From a virus (lineage: Duplodnaviria; Heunggongvirae; Uroviricota; Caudoviricetes), in IMG/VR virus record IMGVR_UViG_2531839473_000014: DNA of 22,459 nucleotides; one strand, written 5' to 3'. Shown in pieces: positions 1 to 15,074 of the stretch; position 1 is the first letter of the stretch; every line of letters starts with the position of its first letter. The notes beneath the pieces were generated by a model. That model did not search any database, was not told where the DNA came from, and saw only the letters and a list, made by a program, of their open reading frames with translations. Position numbers and translations under genes: made by a program.

Positions 1-1236
1 TTACGATAACCGCGCATTCAACATGGCTATCTGTTCGTCGTTCATGTCATCAATCCACATACCGTAAATTTCATACACCATCTGCGCAGTTTCATGCCCC
101 ATTTGGCTGGCTATAAATGCCGGGTTCGCTCCTGCCGTCAACAGCCAGCAGGCAAAAGTATGCCGCGTATGGTACGGATTACGGCGGCGAATACCAGCAC
201 GTTTTACTGCTGCATTCCACCTTGCCCCCAAACTGCTTACCGAGTAATAAGGTTTCTGTTTTCCGTTACACACCCTTGGCATGAAAACAAAATGCAGTTT
301 TTGCTTTTCGGTTCTGCCGTACTCCCGATGATAAAAGGTGATTTCGCTTTTGCGATGATGCCCGGTCAGTTTGTATTGCTCCTTCAGTGCTTCAAGAGCA
401 GGCTGCAGTAGTGTTACTGTCCGGATCCCGGCATTTGTTTTTGGGGGACCGAACATATCAAGTATCGTCAGGTTTCTTCTGACATTCACTATTCCCTTTT
501 CGAGATCCACATCCTCCCACGCCAGAGCTGCCAGTTCCCCGTGACGAAGTCCTGAGTAAACGGCAAATTTCCACAAGTTCTGGCTCTGTCCTTTTTCACT
601 TTCCATTAATGCATTGAATTCTGTTTTAGATAACGGATCAGGCTTTATTCTGTTTCGCTGTAATTTTTTTACTCCTTCAAATGGTTTGGTTGATATAAAT
701 CCCGACTGATACGCAAAACGTAACAGCGAACAGAGCAGGGCGATATAGTTATCAACTGTGCGCACGGTTCTTCCTTTTTTGTTGGATCTTGGATTATCCA
801 GGTAAAGCGTTTCTCCATGCAGCAGTTCATTCCGGTAGTTTAAGATATCGCTATAACGAATATGTGATATCGGGGTACTTTCACAAATTATTATTCTGAG
901 TGTTTTTAATTGTGATTTCGTTTTCTTCATTGTGTTTGTTGTTAACTCTGTCTCTTTAATTTTTGTCCAGATATCACAAAGCTCCCCGAACGTTTTTATG
1001 ACCCTCGTTGTCACCATTTTTGCCCCAGTGCTGGACTGGGGAAAACGTCTTAAATACTCAAATTCACCGGAGTTGATTTCATGAACTATCAACGCTCTTA
1101 AATTCCCGGCCTTTTTAATGTTACTGTTAGTAACCTCCCAGCCTTTCAATGTTTCCCGACATCGTTTTCCTCGAAACATGAACCAGATGCGAATGTATTT
1201 ACCTCGAATCTCGACACCTGTTGGTAATTTAGACAT
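1..1236 (-). CDS. int: Phage tyrosine integrase (site-specific recombinase), 411 aa
   Basis: Full-length minus-strand ORF; C-terminal region has the R...H-x-x-R...Y catalytic layout of tyrosine recombinases (HTRHTFA motif). Sits at the prophage end with an excisionase-like gene immediately upstream, start/stop overlap TGAtATG. Confidence 0.9.
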   Translation of the reverse strand: MSKLPTGVEIRGKYIRIWFMFRGKRCRETLKGWEVTNSNIKKAGNLRALIVHEINSGEFEYLRRFPQSSTGAKMVTTRVIKTFGELCDIWTKIKETELTTNTMKKTKSQLKTLRIIICESTPISHIRYSDILNYRNELLHGETLYLDNPRSNKKGRTVRTVDNYIALLCSLLRFAYQSGFISTKPFEGVKKLQRNRIKPDPLSKTEFNALMESEKGQSQNLWKFAVYSGLRHGELAALAWEDVDLEKGIVNVRRNLTILDMFGPPKTNAGIRTVTLLQPALEALKEQYKLTGHHRKSEITFYHREYGRTEKQKLHFVFMPRVCNGKQKPYYSVSSLGARWNAAVKRAGIRRRNPYHTRHTFACWLLTAGANPAFIASQMGHETAQMVYEIYGMWIDDMNDEQIAMLNARLS

Positions 1237-1991: not shown

Positions 1992-3095
1992 TTAGGAGTC
2001 GATATATTTTGGTTTCATATCTGTCAGTGTCGTTTTATACGCCTCATATAATTCACCCAGATGTGGTCGAGCAGCATTCAGCGTATTTTCCAGAGCAGTA
2101 AATTTTTGTTCTGCTTCTGGATCACCTGATGAAGGCAGGTCATTTATCATCTTCTCGATACTGGCAATAGCATTGAGACGGTGATGACGCCGAACCACTT
2201 TTCCTTTAAGCTCGGCAAAGAATTCGCCGATCTGGTTTTTCTGATCCTCTATCTCTTGGCGTAATGCAGTGGTTTCCTCAGTCGTGGCCGCGCTTTCGAC
2301 ACGCTGCCGGAATTCATCAATCCACGCTTCGTCAATACGCTGTTCGATGGTTTCTGTTCGCTGCTCGCTTACCTCTCTATAATTCTGTACCGGCACAGGA
2401 TTGATGATTTTTTCCTGTGGCTCTTCCAGTTCGTCCGGGGTAAACACGCCCAGGATGACGTCAGGACAATAAAGGCGAGCCCAGTATTTCAACGCCAGAT
2501 AGGCGAGCTGTTGTTTCGGGTTTGAGGTCCATAAAGGAGAATTACGCGTAATCACGCTGGAAAGAAACACCGGTTCTCCCCAGGTAATCTCACTTTCACC
2601 GCGAAGAACTGCACCAACTCGAACTGATAGACCATACTCATCTTCACTGGTCCAACATGGGATCGTTTCTTTTTTCTCATAGATTCCGCCTCCTTTGGCC
2701 GTTTTCTTAACGGTCTCCACTCGGGTGCGAGAGCATTTCTCCCAGTCTCCCTCGTACTTGTAATGGAAGCGGCCTACAATTGCACTTGAGCTAGAGATCA
2801 CAGCGTTAACAAGTTGTGCTTCATAACCCAGAACTCCGTTTACCAGGTGTGTTTTCTGAGCCACAGCGTAGGGGTTCATGCCCCATTGCATGGCTTGCAT
2901 GATGATTGCCATGCAGTCGGCAGGTTTTCCTCGAAGGTGATCGGGAACTGTGACGGTGGCCTGTGACATCAACCCGGCTACTTCCTGAAGTTGCGTCAAC
3001 GCCTGAACGTTAAAAATAGTGTTACTGGCAAAAATGGTATTTGGTGTCTGCTCTGTCGTGATGATATTGGTATTTTGCATGGTCAGGTTCTCCAT
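1992..3095 (-). CDS. Phage single-strand annealing protein, Bet/RecT superfamily (recT position), 367 aa
   Basis: Immediately downstream of recE with TAATG stop/start overlap (alternative ATG at 3080 has a GGAG SD). Central region (AIIMQAMQWGMNPY ... SPLWTSNPKQQLAYLALKYWARLY) resembles the lambda Bet core as recalled; the tail is acidic/coiled-coil-like. Confidence 0.7.
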   Translation of the reverse strand: MENLTMQNTNIITTEQTPNTIFASNTIFNVQALTQLQEVAGLMSQATVTVPDHLRGKPADCMAIIMQAMQWGMNPYAVAQKTHLVNGVLGYEAQLVNAVISSSSAIVGRFHYKYEGDWEKCSRTRVETVKKTAKGGGIYEKKETIPCWTSEDEYGLSVRVGAVLRGESEITWGEPVFLSSVITRNSPLWTSNPKQQLAYLALKYWARLYCPDVILGVFTPDELEEPQEKIINPVPVQNYREVSEQRTETIEQRIDEAWIDEFRQRVESAATTEETTALRQEIEDQKNQIGEFFAELKGKVVRRHHRLNAIASIEKMINDLPSSGDPEAEQKFTALENTLNAARPHLGELYEAYKTTLTDMKPKYIDS

Positions 3096-6000
3096 TAAGC
3101 CAGATGCAGTGCTTCAAGACGACGAAGATCAAAGTCGTTTAATTCGTCGGTATAACTTTCGGTAATCGGTGCTGGCCAGTTGTTTGTCTCTAGGGCTTCG
3201 TTTATCTGGCGTAGCGTCCGGCGATATTCCTGTCGACCAAGTTCCAGGAGTTCCTGCGAGGCTTCCACGACTGCCACCCAGTGATAGCCAACATCTTTGT
3301 TGACGAAGATCCAGAAAAATTTGTCCAGGTTTGCCACATCACAATACATTGCGGCGCTGAGGTGATAATCACGCTCAATAATTTCACGGTGCAGGCGATC
3401 TTTCAGTCGTTCCTGTCGCACATAACCGAGGCTGACTGACTTCACGTCGGCGCAAATGCTTTCGTATTGCAGCCGGATTTCGATATCAGGACGGACCCTG
3501 ATTTCCAGCCCGGTTTCTTCATCAAACCCGAAATAGCTGATTTCAGATTTGCGATCCGGGTGGTTGAGTAGTCTTGCCGCGTCAGTATTGTTTTGCAGTG
3601 CCGCGTGAATATTTTTTGCCTGTTCATACATATCTGGACTGATAAACGTTTTTCCTGCATTTTCTTCTTGCTGGCGTTTTTGCCAGTCCTCCAGTGTTAC
3701 CAGTTTCGGGCGAATTTTCCGGGCGATTTCGGTTAATTGCTCTTTTGTGCCACTGATGTTGTAAGGCAACGATTTAGCACGTTCTTTTTTTGCCAGTTCT
3801 GGATCTACAGTTTCAATTTGCTCCAGAAGCTGCTCCCGTGTTCCACTGGTTTTCAGCAGAGGAGGGAGGCTTGCGTTGTATTCTTTAATACAGGCTTTCA
3901 TTGCTGATGCTGTGTGTTTTTCCCCCTCAGGAATACGCCGAAATTCCTCCGGAAGCGAACCGTAAAGGATGCCTGTTTCTTCGGCCCCAGCGCTTACTGA
4001 CAGTGGCTGTATAAGAGTGCTGTTGTAGCTTTCGATCCACTCTTTCATCTGCTCTGGTGTCATCAGTGATGGCAGACTGGCATTGTGTTTTTTAATGATG
4101 GTGATCAGTTCGTTAGAAGTAGTAACCACATATTCAGGAACCGGTACCGGAATGGCATATTCATCAGCGAATTTATCCGTTTCCAGAACATAGCTGTGAA
4201 TGATCCGCCCACGCAGCAATGCATCACTTTCCTCGTTCGGAATAGTTCCGGCAATGTGCCGCCCGTGGTAATACATCAGACTGATGCGGGCATCCTTCAG
4301 CATTGTGCTGCTTATTCCGTTGGCGGAGTGATAAACCTCGTTCGGGAGGTTTTCATAGCGGCCAGGCTCGAAATATGACGGCCACATGATTTCAGTTGCT
4401 ACATGAGCTGACGCTTCACCAGTTTCATCACTGCAATCGTGATGCGGATGGTTGCCAGCGTTCTCCTTGTGCGGATGTTCAGCGCCTTCCATTTCCTCCG
4501 GATCATTTTCCTTAGCTTCAACCTGATTCTCTTCATCGAATGTTTCCTGGTATGTTGCGTCGCCCATCACCGCACCACAGTCAGGGCAGTTATCCCCGCC
4601 AGTCTGACCGCAGGCATTGCAGACTATTTCCGGTCTCTGTTGCACTACTGGTTCAGGTTGTTTCACATCCGGGCTGGTTTTTACAGTTTCTGGCGTGTTT
4701 TGTTCCGTTTCTGGCTGGTTCTGGTACACAGAGTCGCGAGTCTGGATCCCCTTTACCCATTTCGGATCGTTCGGGTCGCTAATCCCTTCAACGAACTCAC
4801 CACGCGAAGCAACCAGTAATTTGTCTGCATCGACAGGATTTTTGGGCGGAATGTTTTTCCGTGTTTCATGGAGTTCTGCCCGCAGTTTCTGATATTTTTC
4901 ATCAACAGAATTTACCTGTGACTGAGCATCCAGCGGCTGCGTGTCCTGATGATGTTCAGTTGCATCCGGTTCCACTGTTTCAGCCGTTGCCTGTTCATCT
5001 GCCATTGCGCAATATGGTTGCGGTTTTTCTTCATCATCCTGTTTTTCTTCTTCTGTTACACGCTGCGGCATCGGGGCAGAGGAACGACCGCAGGCAATAT
5101 CCACGATTTCCGGATCAGGGTTGGCATGATCAGTTTCAGTCAGTACTTTGTTCAGATATTCAGTGACGTGCGCGGGGATGACCTCGATCCCAATTGGTGC
5201 TTCTTTCACGGACGCAACCACGATGGCGCGGGAATAATCCAGCCCGCCAGGCATGGTGATGAATTTGTCGCGGAAAACAGAAAAGGGCGGTTTATTTTCA
5301 GCGATAATTTCCTCAATGCGTTTAGCGTGTGCCGGATGAAGGTTATAGATGTCCACGTCCATTGAACGGGCCAGAATGCCAGTGGCTACGTCGCGGGCCA
5401 GCGACGCCTGATCATGAACGAAACCTTCGCCGCGATCGGTAAGGTTCCCGCCGCCTGCATTAGCACCGGAATCTGTGCGAGTGATGCGTGAAACACGATT
5501 CCCTTTTCGCCATTCTTTTGTTAGAAGACCGCGATCAATGTGTTCGGTGTCCAGCCAGGCTGAAATGAAATTCTTAAATTCATAGGGCTGATGTTTTTTC
5601 GTGATAGAGAAAACTGCCTTAATTGCATCAGTCAGGCGGAGCAGGGCGGCATTATCCAGAGTTGTCGGTTCTGCCATGCCGCGTATGGCCAACAGCAGAT
5701 TCTGGACATAGCTGTTTTCCTGATCCATCTCAAGAGCGGTAATGTGTTCGCGTTGTTTACGGGTGGCATGATGCAGGTATTTCCGATCCCCGGCCGCATA
5801 CGTAAAAATGTGCAGAAGACGCTGTGTGAACCGCAAAGTGGCTACAGAGACTTCGCAATCCTGGCAATCCCCGTGGGCGTCTGCCTGCGCGTTTTCTTCC
5901 AGGCCTCCCGCCAGTTCTTTGGTTTCCTGAGCATTATCCTGGTGGTGAACGTCGTCTGGTGCTGCTCCCGGTTTTAGTTCCCAGGTCATGGAGTCTTTGC

Positions 6001-6241
6001 TGAGTTGATAGCGTTCACTCCAGGTAAAATCGATCTCACCTTCAGGGGGCAGGTCATTAACGACAGGAAAATTCGTGGCAACAGCTTTAAAATAGTTGCT
6101 CAGTTTTTTACCTGACTTAACGATCAGGTAGTCCAGAGTGGCACAGGTTGATTCAAAATCGTCGCTTGCCCACAGGACGACGTCAGGCTCACCGGATGAT
6201 TTTTTCGCTTTCCGTAAAAGGAAGAGTGGTTTTGTGCTCAT
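3095..6241 (-). CDS. recE: RecE-like exodeoxyribonuclease VIII, long form, 1048 aa
   Basis: N-terminus [26 protein letters not shown] is recalled as the RecE N-terminus; C-terminal region carries PD-(D/E)xK-like residues (RPDIEI ... ADVKS). GAGG SD upstream of the ATG at 6241. Confidence 0.85.
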
Positions 6242-9115: not shown

Positions 9116-9580
9116 CTATTTCTTCATGCGTTTCTGAGCTGCCAGCATCTTTTCAAACGCTTCTTTGTAGAGTTCATTTTGACCTTTAAGCCTTTCGATT
9201 AGTTTTGCTTTTTCTGATTCGGGAAGGATTTCAAAAAGATCCAGTAAATCAGCTTGTTGCTTGTTAACCATCCGCCAACCTTCGCCTTCGAAACTTTCGT
9301 CATAAGTTCCTGAGGAACGGACGTAATTCATCAGATCAGCTAAATCAGGCCTCAACTCTTCAGGCTTAACTCTTAGTAATACAGCGAATTTTAATGCTGC
9401 ATCAGTGTTTAGTGGAGCCTTTCCGTTGAGATAGTGGCTAACTGTGGATTGAGTCTCAAAGCCCATTAGCTCAGCAGCAAGCTCCTGAGTCAGTTTGAGC
9501 TCTCTTTTTTTGGCATCCCAGACTGCGCGCAGACGCTGCGTAGCTTCTGGCGATGCGATTTCTTCGCGTTTTCTTCTCAT
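9116..9580 (-). CDS. racR: Prophage repressor, XRE-type helix-turn-helix (RacR-like), 154 aa
   Basis: HTH segment LTQELAAELMGFETQSTVSHYLNGK; divergent from the ydaS/ydaT-like operon across a 104-bp AT-rich region. Symbol by context. Confidence 0.65.
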   Translation of the reverse strand: MRRKREEIASPEATQRLRAVWDAKKRELKLTQELAAELMGFETQSTVSHYLNGKAPLNTDAALKFAVLLRVKPEELRPDLADLMNYVRSSGTYDESFEGEGWRMVNKQQADLLDLFEILPESEKAKLIERLKGQNELYKEAFEKMLAAQKRMKK

Positions 9581-9684
9581 ACCACCATCTTATGAACACA
9601 ACTCATAAACTCAAACTGATATAGGTATTGATCATTTAAATTAATATAGTTAATATTTTGACAGGCATTACTAAGGTGACCCTT
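9581..9684. promoter_or_regulatory. Divergent promoter/operator region between repressor and ydaS-like gene
   Basis: AT-rich intergenic region with a TTGACA hexamer at 9658-9663 and tandem TTAATAT repeats; typical immunity-region layout. Operators not defined. Confidence 0.45.
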
Positions 9685-9960
9685 ATGACATTAGATGAAT
9701 ATTTGAAAAAAAATCGTGTACGACAGTCTTGTTTGGCCGTACTCGCTGGTTGTTCGCAATCGATGATTAGCCTCGTAGCTACTGGCCGTAGTCAGTTAAG
9801 CCCCGAAAAGGTATTGCGTATCGCGGAGGCTACGAATTTCGAGGTTACACCTCATGAACTTCGGCCTGATATCTACCCGAATCCGACCGATGGTTTACCT
9901 GTTGGATGTAAAGCTAACACACAAAATGCACAGGAGTTGATTCATGAAAATCAGGCATGA
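9685..9960 (+). CDS. ydaS: Cro/CI-type HTH protein (YdaS-like), 91 aa from ATG at 9685
   Basis: ORF-track start is TTG; the ATG at 9685 follows an AAGGTG SD. HTH segment SCLAVLAGCSQSMISLVATGRSQLS. Divergent from the repressor. Confidence 0.7.
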   Translation: MTLDEYLKKNRVRQSCLAVLAGCSQSMISLVATGRSQLSPEKVLRIAEATNFEVTPHELRPDIYPNPTDGLPVGCKANTQNAQELIHENQA

Positions 9961-10366
9961 GCACATTGAATCAGTGCTGTTAGCCCTGGCCGCTGAAAAA
10001 GGGCAGGCATGGGTAGCCAATGCAATTACTGAAGAATATCTGCGCCAGGGGGGCGGCGAATTGCCCCTGGTACCAGGCAAGGACTGGAACAATCAGCAGA
10101 ATATCTATCACCGTTGGTTGAAAGGTGAAACGAAAGCGCAAAGGGAAAAAATTCAGAAACTGATCCCTGCGGTTCTGGCAATTCTTCCGCGCGAGCTGCG
10201 TCACCGACTCTGCATCTTCGATACCCTGGAACGCCGTGCATTACTGGCGGCGCAGGAAGCGTTGAGTACGGCAATTGATGCGCATGATGATGCAGTCCAG
10301 GCCGTTTACCGGAAAGCACATTTCAGCGGCGGCGGTTCGTCCGGCGATTCTGTTGTTGTTCATTAA
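9944..10366 (+). CDS. ydaT: YdaT-like protein (toxic partner of YdaS in Rac), 140 aa
   Basis: Overlaps the ydaS end by 17 bp; AGGAG SD; size and position match ydaT as recalled. Confidence 0.7.
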   Translation: MKIRHEHIESVLLALAAEKGQAWVANAITEEYLRQGGGELPLVPGKDWNNQQNIYHRWLKGETKAQREKIQKLIPAVLAILPRELRHRLCIFDTLERRALLAAQEALSTAIDAHDDAVQAVYRKAHFSGGGSSGDSVVVH

Positions 10367-10385
10367 GTGAATAGGGTAACTAACA

Positions 10386-10799
10386 ATGAAAATCAAACCG
10401 TTTATCAATGCTGGAAATCTTACTCCCGGCGAACTACGAGACTGGATCCTGAAACTTGCAAAAAATGCAGAAATTGCGGGTTGGGGTACAGAAACTTCGG
10501 TTCGGAAGCTTCAGAGCGCAGAACTTAGCCTGCGTTCAGTTATGGACGATTTATCCCCAAGAATTAATTTTCTGGGGTCAGAGCAAATAATTCGTTCGGA
10601 AGATCACTCCAGCGAAGTTGCGGAAGTTCTGAATACTCTGAGGATAACTTTTGCTGCCGTTCGCGATATTCAACGAACCATTCTCTCATTGATTTCTCAG
10701 CTTCAAGAAATTGATAGTCGCATTCCTGATGGGGGTCATAGAGAGCGTCTTCCAGAATGTGAAGAGCAAGGACAGGGGAAACAGATAAGGGATCAGTAA
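10386..10799 (+). CDS. Hypothetical protein, 137 aa
   Basis: Co-directional, 20 bp after ydaT; hydrophilic helical-looking product. A 151-aa ORF runs antisense across it (10564..11019), so strand choice is not certain. Confidence 0.4.
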   Translation: MKIKPFINAGNLTPGELRDWILKLAKNAEIAGWGTETSVRKLQSAELSLRSVMDDLSPRINFLGSEQIIRSEDHSSEVAEVLNTLRITFAAVRDIQRTILSLISQLQEIDSRIPDGGHRERLPECEEQGQGKQIRDQ

Positions 10800-11098
10800 T
10801 ACGTTTTTCACTTGCCTGGTATAGCAATCTCGCCAGCGAATCATAGCTACTGGGGCTCAGGAGAGAATCCCGTGAGTGATTTGTAAGAATCAGGTGGAAG
10901 CGGGTGAGAACTATAGCCTTGCATGTTACCAGGTTAACCATGTCGTGGTCGTGCTGGTTAATTTTGTACACAGTGCGCATGTGATTTTTAATTTTTTGGC
11001 AAACAGCCATTAAAGACATGTCGAACCTCCTTTGGTTCTGTTGCTTGGGGAATCACAGATTATATCCGGAGGAAGGTTCGACACCAGATGAGGCAATT

Positions 11099-12223
11099 AT
11101 GGTTAAGGCTAAAAACATGCCAAATCCCATGCCAAAAACTAAGGCAAACAATGAGCCTTATCGCAAGGTAAAAATAACGATATGGGATGATCCCAAATTT
11201 AGGGCTTTATCTCCTCTGCCTCCAAGTGGACAGAGTTTGTTTATTTATCTGCTGACCAGTCCATTTACCGGGATTATTCCTGGGTTGTTTAAAGCCGGGC
11301 GGGCAGCAATGGCTGAAGAGTTGGGGTGGGATATCGAAGCCTTTGACTTAGCCTTAGGCGAAGCCATGAATCTTGGCATGGTGAAAGCAGATATCAAAGC
11401 CAGAGTTTTTTGGCTCCCGAATGCTGCGAAACACAATCCGCCAAACTCGATAAATGTCATTAAATCCTGGGCAAAGGCATTCGCTTTAATTCCTGATTGC
11501 CCTCTCAAATGGGAGGCCAGGGAATCGCTGAGAGCCGCGTCCTACGGGGTTTCTGAGGCTTTGGGGATGGCATTCGATAAGGCAATCCCTTTGCCTGAGG
11601 ATAAGCCTAAGGATAAGGCTAACGCTTTGTCATGCGGTATCCAGATAACAGATAACAGATATATAAACCCCACACATAACGCGCGCGTGCGCGAGAGTGC
11701 TCCGGCCAGTGAGGCAAATGGCGTGCCGTTGCAGACAGCGGAACCTGATTACCTGGAAGGCCTGAGCGAACCCATCGGGAAATTCCCGATGAGCGATAGC
11801 TGGTATCCGTCACGGGATTTTCGACGACGGGCTGCGTTGTGGGGGATGGCTCTTCCTGAGCCGGAATTTACACCTGCTGAACTTGCCGCCTTCCGGGACT
11901 ACTGGGCAGCGGAGGGGAAAGTTTTCACGCAGGTTCAGTGGGAGCAGAAATTCGCCCGTCACGTAAATCATGTCAGGGCGCAGGTTAAACCAGTCAGCAA
12001 GGGGGCAAACTATGCAGCAGCACCAGGTGGCACCGCATCACGGGCAGTTCAGGAAATTCGGGCAGCACGTGAGCAGTGGGAACGTGAAAACGGATTTATC
12101 AGCGACGGAAACGGCCTGGAAGCTGTGGGAACTCATGGGGGAGGTTTATTCGAACCGCTGGCCCCGGAAGAACGGGGCCGCACCTTCGAAGCTCTGGATT
12201 GCACAGATTGGCGCGATGACTGA
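11099..12223 (+). CDS. Phage replication initiation / replisome-organiser protein with DnaT-like C-terminal domain, 375 aa
   Basis: ATG at 11099 with GAGG SD. C-terminal segment GKFPMSDSWYPSRDFRRRAALWGMALPEPEFTPAELAAFRDYWAAEGKVFTQVQWEQKFAR aligns by eye to E. coli DnaT ([26 protein letters not shown]...[20 protein letters not shown], recalled). Followed by a P-like gene. Confidence 0.7.
   Translation: MVKAKNMPNPMPKTKANNEPYRKVKITIWDDPKFRALSPLPPSGQSLFIYLLTSPFTGIIPGLFKAGRAAMAEELGWDIEAFDLALGEAMNLGMVKADIKARVFWLPNAAKHNPPNSINVIKSWAKAFALIPDCPLKWEARESLRAASYGVSEALGMAFDKAIPLPEDKPKDKANALSCGIQITDNRYINPTHNARVRESAPASEANGVPLQTAEPDYLEGLSEPIGKFPMSDSWYPSRDFRRRAALWGMALPEPEFTPAELAAFRDYWAAEGKVFTQVQWEQKFARHVNHVRAQVKPVSKGANYAAAPGGTASRAVQEIRAAREQWERENGFISDGNGLEAVGTHGGGLFEPLAPEERGRTFEALDCTDWRDD
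11600..11665. repeat. Iteron-like direct repeats inside the replication gene (candidate origin)
   Basis: GATAAGCCTAA / GATAAGGCTAA tandem at 11600-11622 and AGATAACAGATAACAGATA at 11643-11661, followed by ATATATAAA; located in the linker between the two domains of the replication protein, as for lambda ori within O. Confidence 0.35.
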
Positions 12224-12677
12224 GCAGCAAATCCGGCAGGTCTGCCGCCAGTGCATGGACCGCTGCCGGGCGGGTGAAACATGGCCTCCGGACCTGGCTG
12301 AGTTTGTGGCGCTGATTTCGGAAAGCGGAGCCAATCCATTCGGTCTGACGGTGGATGCTGTGATGGAGGAGTACCGCCGCTGGCGCAACGAGTCCTGGCG
12401 ATACGACGGAAGCGATAAATACCCGTGGTCTCAGCCTGTGCTGTATCACATTTGCCTCGAGATGCGTTCAAAGGGGATTGAGCGCCAGATGACCGAAGGG
12501 GAGTTAAAACGGCTTGCAGAACGGCAACTGACGAAATGGGCAAAGCATGTTGGTAACGGCCTGAGCATTCCGCCAGTCCGGCGACAGCTGGCGGCACCAA
12601 AACGCCCGTCGGGACCAACGCCAATTGAGTTGCTGAAACAGGAGTATGAACGCCGGAAAACGGCTGGTTTTGTTTGA
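12012..12677 (+). CDS. Lambda P-like replication protein (DnaB helicase loader), about 221 aa; start uncertain
   Basis: C-terminal region PPDLAEFVALISE...YPWSQPVLYHICLEM...ELKRLAERQ parallels lambda P (PGQFVAWCREE...YPWKSNAHYWLVTNL...ELRRKAADE, recalled). ATG at 12012 has a strong GGGGG SD; an alternative ATG at 12216 overlaps the upstream stop (ATGACTGA). Confidence 0.55.
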   Translation: MQQHQVAPHHGQFRKFGQHVSSGNVKTDLSATETAWKLWELMGEVYSNRWPRKNGAAPSKLWIAQIGAMTEQQIRQVCRQCMDRCRAGETWPPDLAEFVALISESGANPFGLTVDAVMEEYRRWRNESWRYDGSDKYPWSQPVLYHICLEMRSKGIERQMTEGELKRLAERQLTKWAKHVGNGLSIPPVRRQLAAPKRPSGPTPIELLKQEYERRKTAGFV

Positions 12678-12709
12678 GTTGAGAAGTAATTTTTACCGGG
12701 AGGAAATTT

Positions 12710-13456
12710 ATGGAGACTGTTTTTGACGCACTGAAAGCGATGGGAAAAGCCTCGTCGGTAGAGCTGGCTGCGCGACTTGATATCAGTCGTGAAGAAGTGC
12801 TGAACGAGCTGTGGGAACTGAAAAAGGCTGGTTTTGTTGATAAAAGCGCGTACACCTGGCGTGTGGCTGATAACAACGTTCAGCAGGAACAGCCAGCGCC
12901 AGAAGAACAGCCGGAAGAAACCACCACGGCAACAGTAGCGAAAATCTCAGAGTGCGATTTAACCGCGACGATTGAACAACGCGGACCACAAACGGCGGAT
13001 GAACTGGCTACGCTGTTCGGTACAACATCCCGCAAAGTTGCTTCAACGCTGGCAATGGCAATCAGCAAAGGTCGTCTGATTCGCGTAAACCAGAACGGTA
13101 AATTTCGTTACTGCATACCAGGTGATAATTTACCAGCAGAGCCGAAAGTTGAATCGGTAGCGGAAACCGATGGTAAAGCCTTTCCTCAGCCAGCCGGTGT
13201 TGCGTTACCGGTACAGAAAGATGCAACACAGGAAGATATTAAAACAGAAACTGTGGCGGACATTGTGCAGTCGCTGCCATCGTTTACTGCAACGCGAGAA
13301 GATGATTTGATTTTGCCATCGCTGCATATGGCAAATCGCGAACTGCGTAGGGCGAAGAATCATGTCCAGAAGTGGGAGCGAGTCTGCGCCGCGCTGCGGG
13401 AGCTGAACAAGCACCGGGATATGGTTGCCGGGATTTGTCGGAAGTCCGGGCAATGA
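12710..13456 (+). CDS. Hypothetical protein with two winged-helix-like segments, 248 aa
   Basis: GGGAGG SD before the ATG; N-terminal segment ([29 protein letters not shown]) and a second similar segment ([30 protein letters not shown]). Function unknown. Confidence 0.55.
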
Positions 13457-14315: not shown

Positions 14316-15074
14316 ATGAGGAACATAATGGCAGGTTTTTTAATATTCCTGTCTTCTGCTGCTTATGCTGATATCAATCTGTATGGTCCTGGTGGCCCGC
14401 ATACAGCCTTGCTTGATGCAGCCAAACTTTATGCCGAAAAAACAGGTATTATAGTGAACGTTCATTACGGCCCACAGAACAAATGGAATGAAGATGCCAA
14501 AAAAAATGCAGATATCTTGTTTGGCGCATCAGAACAATCTGCTCTGGCTATCATTCGGGACCATAAAGACAGCTTCAGTGAAAAAGATATTCAGCCTCTT
14601 TATCTGCGAAAAAGTATTTTATTGGTAAAGAAAGGTAATCCTAAAAATATCCGGAGTATTGACGACCTGACCAGACCCGGGATTGGCGTAATTGTTAATG
14701 ATGGTGGTGGTACCAGTAATACATCAGGCACTGGCGTCTGGGAAGATATTGCCGGACGTAAAGGGAATATAGAAACTGTCGCCGCAATCCGAAAAAATAT
14801 TATTTTATATGCGCCCAACAGCGGAACTGCACGTAAGGCTCTTGAGAATCAGCCTGAAGCAGATGTCTGGATAACCTGGGCTGACTGGGCAGCCAGTAAT
14901 CCAGAAATTGGTGATGTCGTGGAAATAGCGCCAGACTACGTGATATGGCGTGATATGAACATTACAGTACGTCAGGATGCAAATGATGAAACCCGTCGAT
15001 TTGCAGAATGGCTACAAACCGATGAAGCGGCGCCTGCATTCAAAAAATATGGCTGGACCAGGAAAGGCACTTGA
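14316..15074 (+). CDS. Periplasmic substrate-binding protein, ModA/TupA-like type 2 fold, 252 aa, orphan (no transporter partners)
   Basis: AAAAGGAG SD; Sec signal peptide MRNIMAGFLIFLSSAAYA then DINLY; overall layout and C-terminal FKKYGWT resemble ModA (FKRYGFT, recalled). AT-rich compared with the flanking phage genes. Confidence 0.75.
   Translation: MRNIMAGFLIFLSSAAYADINLYGPGGPHTALLDAAKLYAEKTGIIVNVHYGPQNKWNEDAKKNADILFGASEQSALAIIRDHKDSFSEKDIQPLYLRKSILLVKKGNPKNIRSIDDLTRPGIGVIVNDGGGTSNTSGTGVWEDIAGRKGNIETVAAIRKNIILYAPNSGTARKALENQPEADVWITWADWAASNPEIGDVVEIAPDYVIWRDMNITVRQDANDETRRFAEWLQTDEAAPAFKKYGWTRKGT

Follow-up and report, generated by a model that had tools for sequence, protein, structure and literature searches.

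Where does replication start in a Rac-like lambdoid prophage whose initiator has a DnaT-like domain? The question is raised by the gene at 11099-12223 in IMG/VR virus record IMGVR_UViG_2531839473_000014 (Caudoviricetes), a stretch of 22,459 nucleotides (nt) which was analysed in full and is called the window here. A preliminary description, made from the letters alone, had proposed that an origin is embedded in this initiator gene, within the DNA coding for the linker between two protein domains. Our analysis points to the same place: the linker-coding DNA is probably the lambda-type replication origin of the prophage, a reading to which we give a probability of about 0.6 on the sequence evidence. 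It would most likely be a newly found instance of the arrangement known from phage lambda, whose origin lies inside the O gene (restated in PMC5509034). Those parts of the proposal that computation can test have held up, and comparison adds strong support of its own: selection on the linker DNA, heptamers that are out of frame with the codons, repeats that vary with the type of N-terminal domain, and a layout found across a superfamily. The elements concerned are:

11099-12223, plus strand: replication initiator gene, ATG at 11099, stop codon at 12221-12223, 374 amino acids
11156-11593, plus strand: N-terminal domain, putative origin-binding winged helix, about residues 20-165
11336-11365: constrained 30-nt block GAAGCCTTTGACTTAGCCTTAGGCGAAGCC, holding the palindrome GCCTTAGGC, which is the inverse of the linker motif GCCTAAGG
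11570-11641: iteron-like array of six 12-nt-phased units, GCATTCGATAAG, GCAATCCCTTTG, CCTGAGGATAAG, CCTAAGGATAAG, GCTAACGCTTTG and TCATGCGGTATC
11642-11662: three heptamers, CAGATAA CAGATAA CAGATAT, with the conserved GGTATCCAG just before them; candidate unwinding element
11665-11703: junction sequence AACCCCACACATAACGCGCGCGTGCGCGAGAGTGCTCCG, common to four N-terminal types, with a GC-rich near-palindrome at 11680-11693
11756-11983, plus strand: DnaT-like single-stranded DNA (ssDNA)-binding domain, residues 220-295
12012-12677, plus strand: lambda-P-like helicase loader gene, 221 amino acids, ATG at 12012, preceded by AGGGGG at 12000-12005
12012-12223, plus strand: dual-coding stretch, read in frame 0 as the tail of the initiator and in frame +1 as the N-terminus of the P-like loader

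The repeats of the preliminary description were found where it had placed them, GATAAGCCTAAG/GATAAGGCTAAC at 11600-11623 and AGATAACAGATAACAGATA at 11643-11661, and Tandem Repeats Finder (TRF) reported a 12-nt unit present 2.5 times at 11593-11622 and a 7-nt unit present 2.9 times at 11642-11661, the latter with 100% match. Their extent and unit had to be revised: the array consists of six 12-nt-phased units at 11570-11641 and not of two 11-mers, and copies also lie elsewhere in the gene. Self-match of 11570-11641 at lag 12 is 0.54 compared with a gene mean of 0.33, which is in the top 2% of the windows scanned. As in a lambda-type origin, these direct repeats lie within the DNA for the interdomain region. 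The heptamers directly after them cannot be a peptide repeat because a period of 7 nt is not a multiple of 3. The "AT tract" said to follow the repeats is only about 10 nt long (TATATAAA), with a lowest 60-nt GC of 0.37; what stands of it is low duplex stability, 11638-11667 being the least stable 30-bp duplex of the gene (-30.9 kcal/mol versus a mean of -41.9, standard deviation 3.5). The heptamer tract beside the iteron-like units lies in these 30 bp; the corresponding (CAGGAA)n tract of relatives has 50% GC.

Two side observations concern this segment. In contig IMGVR_UViG_2690316123_000001 (L041), otherwise identical, the third heptamer is CAGATAA instead of CAGATAT, which creates an in-frame TAA and cuts the initiator to 187 amino acids; this is probably a decaying prophage. 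The sequence GTATCCAGA at 11637-11645 belongs to the GGTATCCAG that most relatives share unchanged and agrees with the DnaA-box consensus (TTATCCACA) at 7 of 9 positions, the distantly related L124 reading GTTATCCAGG there; we do not claim it as a DnaA box.

The strongest evidence comes from synonymous sites. About 110 loci with the same N-terminal domain were gathered from genomes, viral contigs and metagenomes and reduced to 20 representatives with 70-91% DNA identity, for which synonymous-codon identity, that is, codon identity at positions with a shared amino acid, was compared between segments of the gene:

Residues 20-73, N-terminal domain: synonymous-codon identity 0.45, amino-acid identity 0.93
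Residues 91-155, N-terminal domain: synonymous-codon identity 0.54, amino-acid identity 0.78
Residues 158-189, linker: synonymous-codon identity 0.89, amino-acid identity 0.65

The linker is the least conserved protein segment among the 20 relatives, its amino-acid identity falling to 0.43 between the clade of the window and the rest, and its synonymous-codon identity differs from that of the N-terminal domain with a Mann-Whitney p of 4e-13. Sliding windows across 11570-11665 gave synonymous identities of 0.79-0.96. For Lys, Leu, Pro and Ala the linker almost always uses AAG, TTG, CCT and GCT, a preference that the rest of the gene does not show. When the relatives were aligned, the 12-nt-phased units fell into two alternating kinds, ..CTAAGGATAAG and ..CTAA.CCTTTG, varying in number by whole 12-nt units and followed by the invariant GGTATCCAG and then by the 7-nt repeats, which read CAGTAAA in most relatives and CAGATAA in the window. 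The heptamer is kept in one of these two forms despite the differing peptides that are read from it. This pattern indicates that the linker repeats are kept by selection on the DNA itself.

The same layout extends beyond the close relatives. In proteins with 45-60% identity the linker position is taken by (KPSx)n and then (QE)n, and (QE)n was found in 93 of 149 top representatives, at a median residue of 170. At the DNA level, in 70 distinct loci with a GC of 0.33-0.71, the tract is (CARGAR)3-13, mostly CAGGAA; this set is biased toward the tract, as one of the two scan patterns was QEQEQEQ, while the figure of 93/149 is unbiased. Lineage-specific 11-12-nt direct repeats precede the tract: in 74% of the 70 loci the 60 nt upstream of it rank in the top 5% of windows of their own gene for 10-13-nt periodicity, with a best lag of 12 nt in 43 loci and of 11 nt in 23, and in these 23 the lag of 11 nt means that the upstream repeats cannot be a peptide repeat. 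Tract codons are pulled toward CAGGAA, although not absolutely, in AT-rich and GC-rich hosts alike. The CAGATAA heptamers of the window are the local form of this (CAGTAAA)n or (CAGGAA)n tract of the relatives. Our literature search found no paper on a (CARGAR)n or QE tract in phage replication proteins and none joining DnaT, iterons and phage origins. Tentatively, then, the heptamers could be the local form of an undescribed origin element of the whole superfamily, a purine-rich tract of 6-7-nt units, taking the form (CAGGAA)n in the majority of lineages, that immediately follows lineage-specific 11-12-bp iterons in the initiator genes of thousands of phages. Whether translated as QEQEQE, QITDNRY or QKAVSSKQI, such a tract would be kept at the DNA level as the site of unwinding or of helicase entry, the opened strand being read by ssDNA-binding modules such as the DnaT-like domain. 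We regard this extension as doubtful for the present; if it is correct, thousands of phage origins could have an unwinding or loading element in common.

The best surviving alternative, which we nevertheless consider unlikely, is that the repeats are a low-complexity, slippage-prone peptide linker, rich in Lys, Pro, Ala and Leu and then polar, with no function in cis, and that the origin is elsewhere, for example in an intergenic region. In its favour are the predicted disorder of the linker, a unit number that varies in whole 12-nt steps, the in-frame (KPSx)n(QE)n tract of distant relatives, whose synonymous positions partly follow genome GC, and a repeat score that is by itself below the TRF default threshold. 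It does not explain why the segment with the lowest amino-acid identity has a synonymous identity of 0.89, nor why the codons are drawn to CAGGAA in both AT-rich and GC-rich hosts; the heptamer period, and the 11-nt period of the 23 loci, are impossible as peptide repeats; and the motif recurs in inverted form 250 bp upstream, in a well-folded domain.

The array also changes together with the N-terminal module. The C-terminal module, comprising the DnaT-like domain and the P-like gene, was found joined to four unrelated N-terminal domains, each with its own linker repeats:

N-terminal type of the window: 12-nt-phased units of the CCTAAGGATAAG type
Very common E. coli N-terminal type: GTCACGAC five times, at 10-11 bp spacing
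N-terminal type of PPompW (HTH_36-like): ACCCAAA six times, at 10 or 20 bp spacing
DUF1376 N-terminal type of Rac (YdaU): TGTTCAAACA twice and an inverted copy

In each type the 10-12-bp-phased repeats sit directly upstream of a common junction, AAACCCCACACATAACGCGCG, and all four arrays then run into a 6-7-nt tract of the AGATA type. The sequence of the iterons therefore co-varies with the N-terminal DNA-binding module, in the four types as well as in the 70 distant loci. A scan for deeper relatives of the N-terminal domain labelled type B yielded only sequences that are at least 96% identical. One case of exchange is that of the two Rac proteins: YdaU of K-12 Rac (L205, 2620-3477) and the "YdaU" of Rac-SA53 (L002) agree in their DUF1376 domain, in the linker repeats and as far as the AGATA tract, and diverge completely beyond it, K-12 YdaU continuing into a non-DnaT C-terminus followed by a DnaC-like YdaV and the Rac-SA53 protein into the DnaT-like domain and the P-like gene. 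This is the pattern of lambda, in which the iterons go with the N-terminal module and the loader with the C-terminal module.

Such mosaicism raises the possibility that the conserved DNA is a module-exchange junction, where N-terminal modules recombine with the DnaT-like/P-like module, and not an origin. Mosaic breakpoints do lie here, at 11639 and 11661, where the matches of Rac-SA53 and the PPompW phage start (query positions 541 and 563); from 11639 on, the entire C-terminal module is present in Rac-SA53 "YdaU" with 94% identity; about 930 RefSeq E. coli genomes match 11639-11720 only, attached to other N-terminal halves; and K-12 Rac YdaU changes its C-terminus directly after the AGATA tract. 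A junction would account for the conservation of 11665-11703, but not for the type-specific arrays upstream, the 10-12-bp phasing or the block at 11336-11365, and as the full explanation it is quite improbable. In lambdoid phages the origin and the mosaic boundary coincide, so that the junction and origin readings are not mutually exclusive.

The block at 11336-11365 is the second segment of the gene with marked constraint on its DNA. It is nearly invariant in the 20 relatives while the flanking codons vary freely, with a synonymous identity of 0.90 versus a background of about 0.5 (Mann-Whitney p = 5e-6), and it falls in the coding region of the putative recognition helix. Within the gene, CCTWAGG occurs only in this block and in the linker. 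Six of the nine copies of TAAGGC in the 22-kb window fall in 11104-11619, and 18 of 37 loose matches to CTTTGSCTAAGG in 11097-11618. The block may serve as an additional site for the initiator, in looping or in some other way. A distribution of motif copies across the 5' end of the gene, 11336-11365 and the linker would also suit looping or roadblock control, and the 5' motif cluster coincides in part with a promoter-like minus-strand site; the repeats might be sites for a regulatory protein, through which the initiator/loader operon represses itself or the internal start of the P-like gene is controlled. This has little chance of being the whole explanation: the motif is absent from the operators of the immunity region and from the rest of the window, and wherever the array occurs, in many lineages with different loaders, a melting-prone periodic tract accompanies it at the domain boundary.

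The open reading frame (ORF) of the initiator gene is as first described, and the product is laid out as an N-terminal winged-helix-like domain, a disordered linker, a DnaT-like ssDNA-binding domain and a tail. The replication-initiation families phrog_1408 and phrog_1701 of PHROG match both halves, and the RefSeq name is "DnaT-like ssDNA-binding domain-containing protein". For the N-terminal 165 residues no Pfam match was obtained even at E<=1; the domain matches PHROG families 25711, 1408 and 1701 (replication-initiator and DnaD-like families), and its own family is large, with 4436 representatives at 50% identity and E<=1e-3. An AlphaFold model built from 15 sequences has a mean pLDDT of 60, with values of 60-94 for residues 60-165; in it residues 63-105 form a helix-turn-helix (HTH) and a beta hairpin, and helices continue as far as residue 162. 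A fold search with this model found no significant match (best E=0.08), but the best matches were all winged-helix regulators, a weak hint of a winged-helix fold. Residues 168-200 have a pLDDT of less than 50 and are predicted to be disordered; the repeats lie within this segment, so that calling it an interdomain linker was fair. Because it is predicted to be disordered, the linker can, on this model, tolerate a sequence imposed by the DNA.

The DnaT likeness, on which the preliminary description had staked its case beforehand, was confirmed by three profile and structure comparisons. Residues 229-295 match PF17948 with 61.5 bits (gathering cut-off 25, E=6.4e-17); DnaT chains of the PDB (6aep, 4ou6, 2ru8 and 9zbt) match at E=6e-20 to 2e-16, with about 57% identity over 70 residues; and the NCBIfam DnaT model NF002770 matches at E=1e-26, at model positions 81-157 only, with 93.6 bits versus an equivalog cut-off of 201. 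Since the last score is far below the cut-off, the sequence comparison identifies the initiator as a domain relative of DnaT and not as a DnaT orthologue. The gene does not end in this domain, as had been thought: the domain is internal, with about 80 residues after it. Of the domains typical of lambda O, neither Phage_rep_O (PF04492) nor Phg_2220_C (PF09524) was found in the initiator, although one distant relative of the N-terminal domain does carry PF09524. DUF1376 (PF07120), the mark of Rac YdaU, is absent from the N-terminus of the window initiator; for Rac-SA53 YdaU the E value is 1e-26.

The downstream gene is lambda-P-like, as proposed, but its start needs correction. In public annotation it begins at 12216 and encodes 153 amino acids. 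The comparison of 17 relatives that have the P-like gene indicates that the true start is 12012, giving 221 amino acids and an overlap of 212 nt with the initiator gene in the +1 frame. In all 17, no stop codon interrupts the +1 frame over at least 218 nt ahead of the end of the initiator gene, and this frame encodes a conserved peptide, AW.LWE.M..Y.NRW..KNG..PS.W, and an ATG with a Shine-Dalgarno sequence of the GGAGG or GGGGG type is conserved in 17/17. The extended form matches phrog_109 ("P-like helicase loader") over profile positions 20-235 of 236 (210.7 bits, E=5.6e-62), compared with positions 74-235 and 187.3 bits for the short form; the match to PF06992 (lambda P; 61 bits, cut-off 26) covers profile positions 33-161 of 162, starting at 50 without the extension, and the lambda P structure 8v9t matches the loader at E=7e-4. 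The overlap explains the raised synonymous identity at the 3' end of the initiator gene (0.66-0.88 at 12089-12223), since two frames are coding there. It also explains why the acidic tail of the initiator always accompanies a P-like gene: the tail and the N-terminus of the P-like protein are the same DNA read in two frames, and we have withdrawn the idea that their co-occurrence reflects a protein-protein contact. An ungapped comparison of identity in the two frames was uninformative owing to indels and was not used. The correction matters for complementation and expression work, where the gene is needed from 12012 and not from 12216. A single profile, phrog_15931 (482 positions), covers both the C-terminal half of the initiator (171-347) and the P-like protein (270-482), so the two may be annotated or encoded as one fused product in some phage genomes.

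That the synonymous constraint in the linker stems from an overlapping gene hidden there or from a structured RNA is scarcely credible, in spite of the genuine overlap at the 3' end of the initiator gene, one antisense frame that is open across the linker in 17/20 relatives and a fold of 11560-11700 that is better than that of shuffled sequences (z=-2.5), as the other sense frames are full of stop codons. The antisense ORF, 11542-11673 (43 amino acids), was rejected, having neither a conserved start nor a ribosome-binding site. The RNA hairpin of the linker was rejected as well, being not conserved: the consensus fold of 17 relatives has -2.3 kcal/mol and 5 invariant pairs. A search of 10300-12800 against Rfam matched no family.

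Taken as a lambda-type origin, the locus would work as follows. DNA at about 11570-11670, in the linker-coding segment, would be the origin of the prophage on the lambda plan. The winged-helix-like N-terminal domain of the initiator would bind the 12-bp-phased repeats, and maybe also the sites at 11336-11365 and near the 5' end of the gene; the adjacent heptamer tract, the most easily melted 30 bp of the gene, would then open; the internal DnaT-like domain would hold the ssDNA; and the P-like protein, whose gene begins at 12012 within the 3' part of the initiator gene, would bring the host DnaB.

Similarity to the lambda O/ori-lambda/P system is found in the gene order, in which cro/cII-like genes are followed by initiator and loader, and in the loader itself, a lambda P homologue. 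The initiator is modular in both, with an N-terminal DNA-binding and a C-terminal partner module, and in both the DNA coding for the interdomain region has direct repeats that change with the N-terminal module; the tract after them, easily melted in lambda, may be so in the window as well. The differences are that the N-terminal domain in the window has no detectable similarity to Phage_rep_O and that the partner module is DnaT-like and not Phg_2220_C; six short 12-nt-phased units take the place of the four 19-bp dyad iterons of lambda, and 21 nt of heptamers that of an AT-rich region of about 40 bp; and initiator and loader overlap by 212 nt in another frame, compared with 4 nt in lambda. Residues 220-295 align with the C-terminal three-helix ssDNA-binding domain of E. 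coli DnaT with about 57% identity; unlike in DnaT, only this DNA-binding domain is present, the N-terminal part of DnaT being replaced by an origin-binding-type domain and the linker.

Brezellec et al. (2017; PMC5509034) have described an architecture of HTH and DnaT C-terminal domains with a P-like partner, which occurs in phages and in the domesticated pair DopC/DopE. In DopC/DopE of Cellvibrionales and Oceanospirillales an N-terminal HTH-type domain and the DnaT C-terminal motif are likewise followed by a lambda-P-like gene. DopC differs in being chromosomal and reported without iteron-like sequences or origin function (PMC5509034), whereas the gene of the window is prophage-borne and has DNA-constrained repeats. 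The position of the initiator gene after ydaS and ydaT and the layout of the linker are as for YdaU/YdaV of Rac, where TGTTCAAACA repeats are followed by the AGATA tract; the differences are the N-terminal domain, DUF1376 in Rac and of no Pfam family in the window initiator, and, for K-12 YdaU, a different C-terminus together with a YdaV that is DnaC-like. An active origin, oriJ, has been reported for Rac (PMC3945230). Papers on replication of Stx phages of the "Eru" kind mention neither DnaT nor iterons.

Several points weigh against an origin in the linker. The repeats are short and imperfect beside the four 19-bp iterons of lambda, and their TRF scores, 46 and 40, are below the default of 50; the two repeats alone are not beyond chance, as 12 TRF arrays scoring at least 30 were found in the 22-kb window. 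The melting-prone tract is short and of modest AT content (lowest 60-nt GC 0.37), and 3-4% of the positions in the window are less stable than 11638-11667. The fold assignment of the N-terminal domain is weak, with a pLDDT of 60 and fold matches that are all non-significant. The sequences compared are akin, so that the statistics on synonymous sites are not phylogenetically independent. In distant relatives the synonymous positions of the hexamer shift with genome GC (CAAGAA, CAGGAA or CAGGAG), so that a requirement for (QE)n at the peptide level may exist there. Our literature search did not find the fine position of oriJ of Rac, and the published "oriJ" primers for the polymerase chain reaction (De Paepe 2014) map within ydaV, in a repeat-free segment, and are therefore uninformative on this position.

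If an origin in the linker-coding DNA is correct, it provides a concrete origin of about 100 bp for a family of replication modules that is very common in E. coli and enterobacterial prophages, including Rac-like prophages with LT-II and pertussis-like toxins as well as modules in O157:H7 prophages. The rule of lambda would then extend to initiators whose N-terminal domains are unrelated and whose partner domain is DnaT-like.

The window represents the early region of a lambdoid prophage of the Rac-like kind. The genes upstream of the initiator gene are:

1-1236, minus strand: integrase
1992-6241, minus strand: RecT and RecE/exonuclease VIII
9116-9580, minus strand: HTH repressor
9658-10366: YdaS-like and YdaT-like genes (Cro/cII-like)

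The initiator gene thus occupies the position between genes of the cro/cII type (homologues of YdaS/YdaT) and the helicase-loader gene; it is followed by the lambda-P-like gene and a DUF1627 gene, with pertussis-toxin-like and heat-labile-enterotoxin genes farther on. One divergent gene (10564-11019, minus strand) is interposed between the ydaT-like gene and the initiator gene; it has a strong AAGGAGG site and the RefSeq label "ECs1072 family", and it overlaps a plus-strand ORF at 10386-10799 (phrog_37051). The promoter-like site on the minus strand, TTGGCA-16-CATAAT, lies within the first codons of the initiator (11096-11123).

The whole initiator gene was found in 37 RefSeq E. coli genomes. 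By megablast the replication gene pair has 97% identity to one phage record, PP818812, where the two genes are labelled "primosomal protein" and "replication protein". This record (PP818812.1) is named "Actinobacillus phage vB_Apl-pPE4"; the neighbouring genes in it are typical E. coli Rac-like genes, and the host label is doubtful.

The window also carries cargo genes. A gene for a periplasmic solute-binding protein (14316-15074; SBP_bac_11, E=1.6e-34), which is unusual cargo, is located amid the genes of the early and nin regions. Toxin cargo occupies 17850-18575, 18586-19068, 20422-21201 and 21161-21562, and comprises a pertussis-toxin S1-like ADP-ribosyltransferase (PF02917) with a small ORF after it and a full-length heat-labile enterotoxin A chain (PF01375, E=1.6e-130), also with a small ORF after it. 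This cargo is consistent with the LT-II-encoding Rac-like prophages of Jobling, as far as these are cited in PMC5917428.

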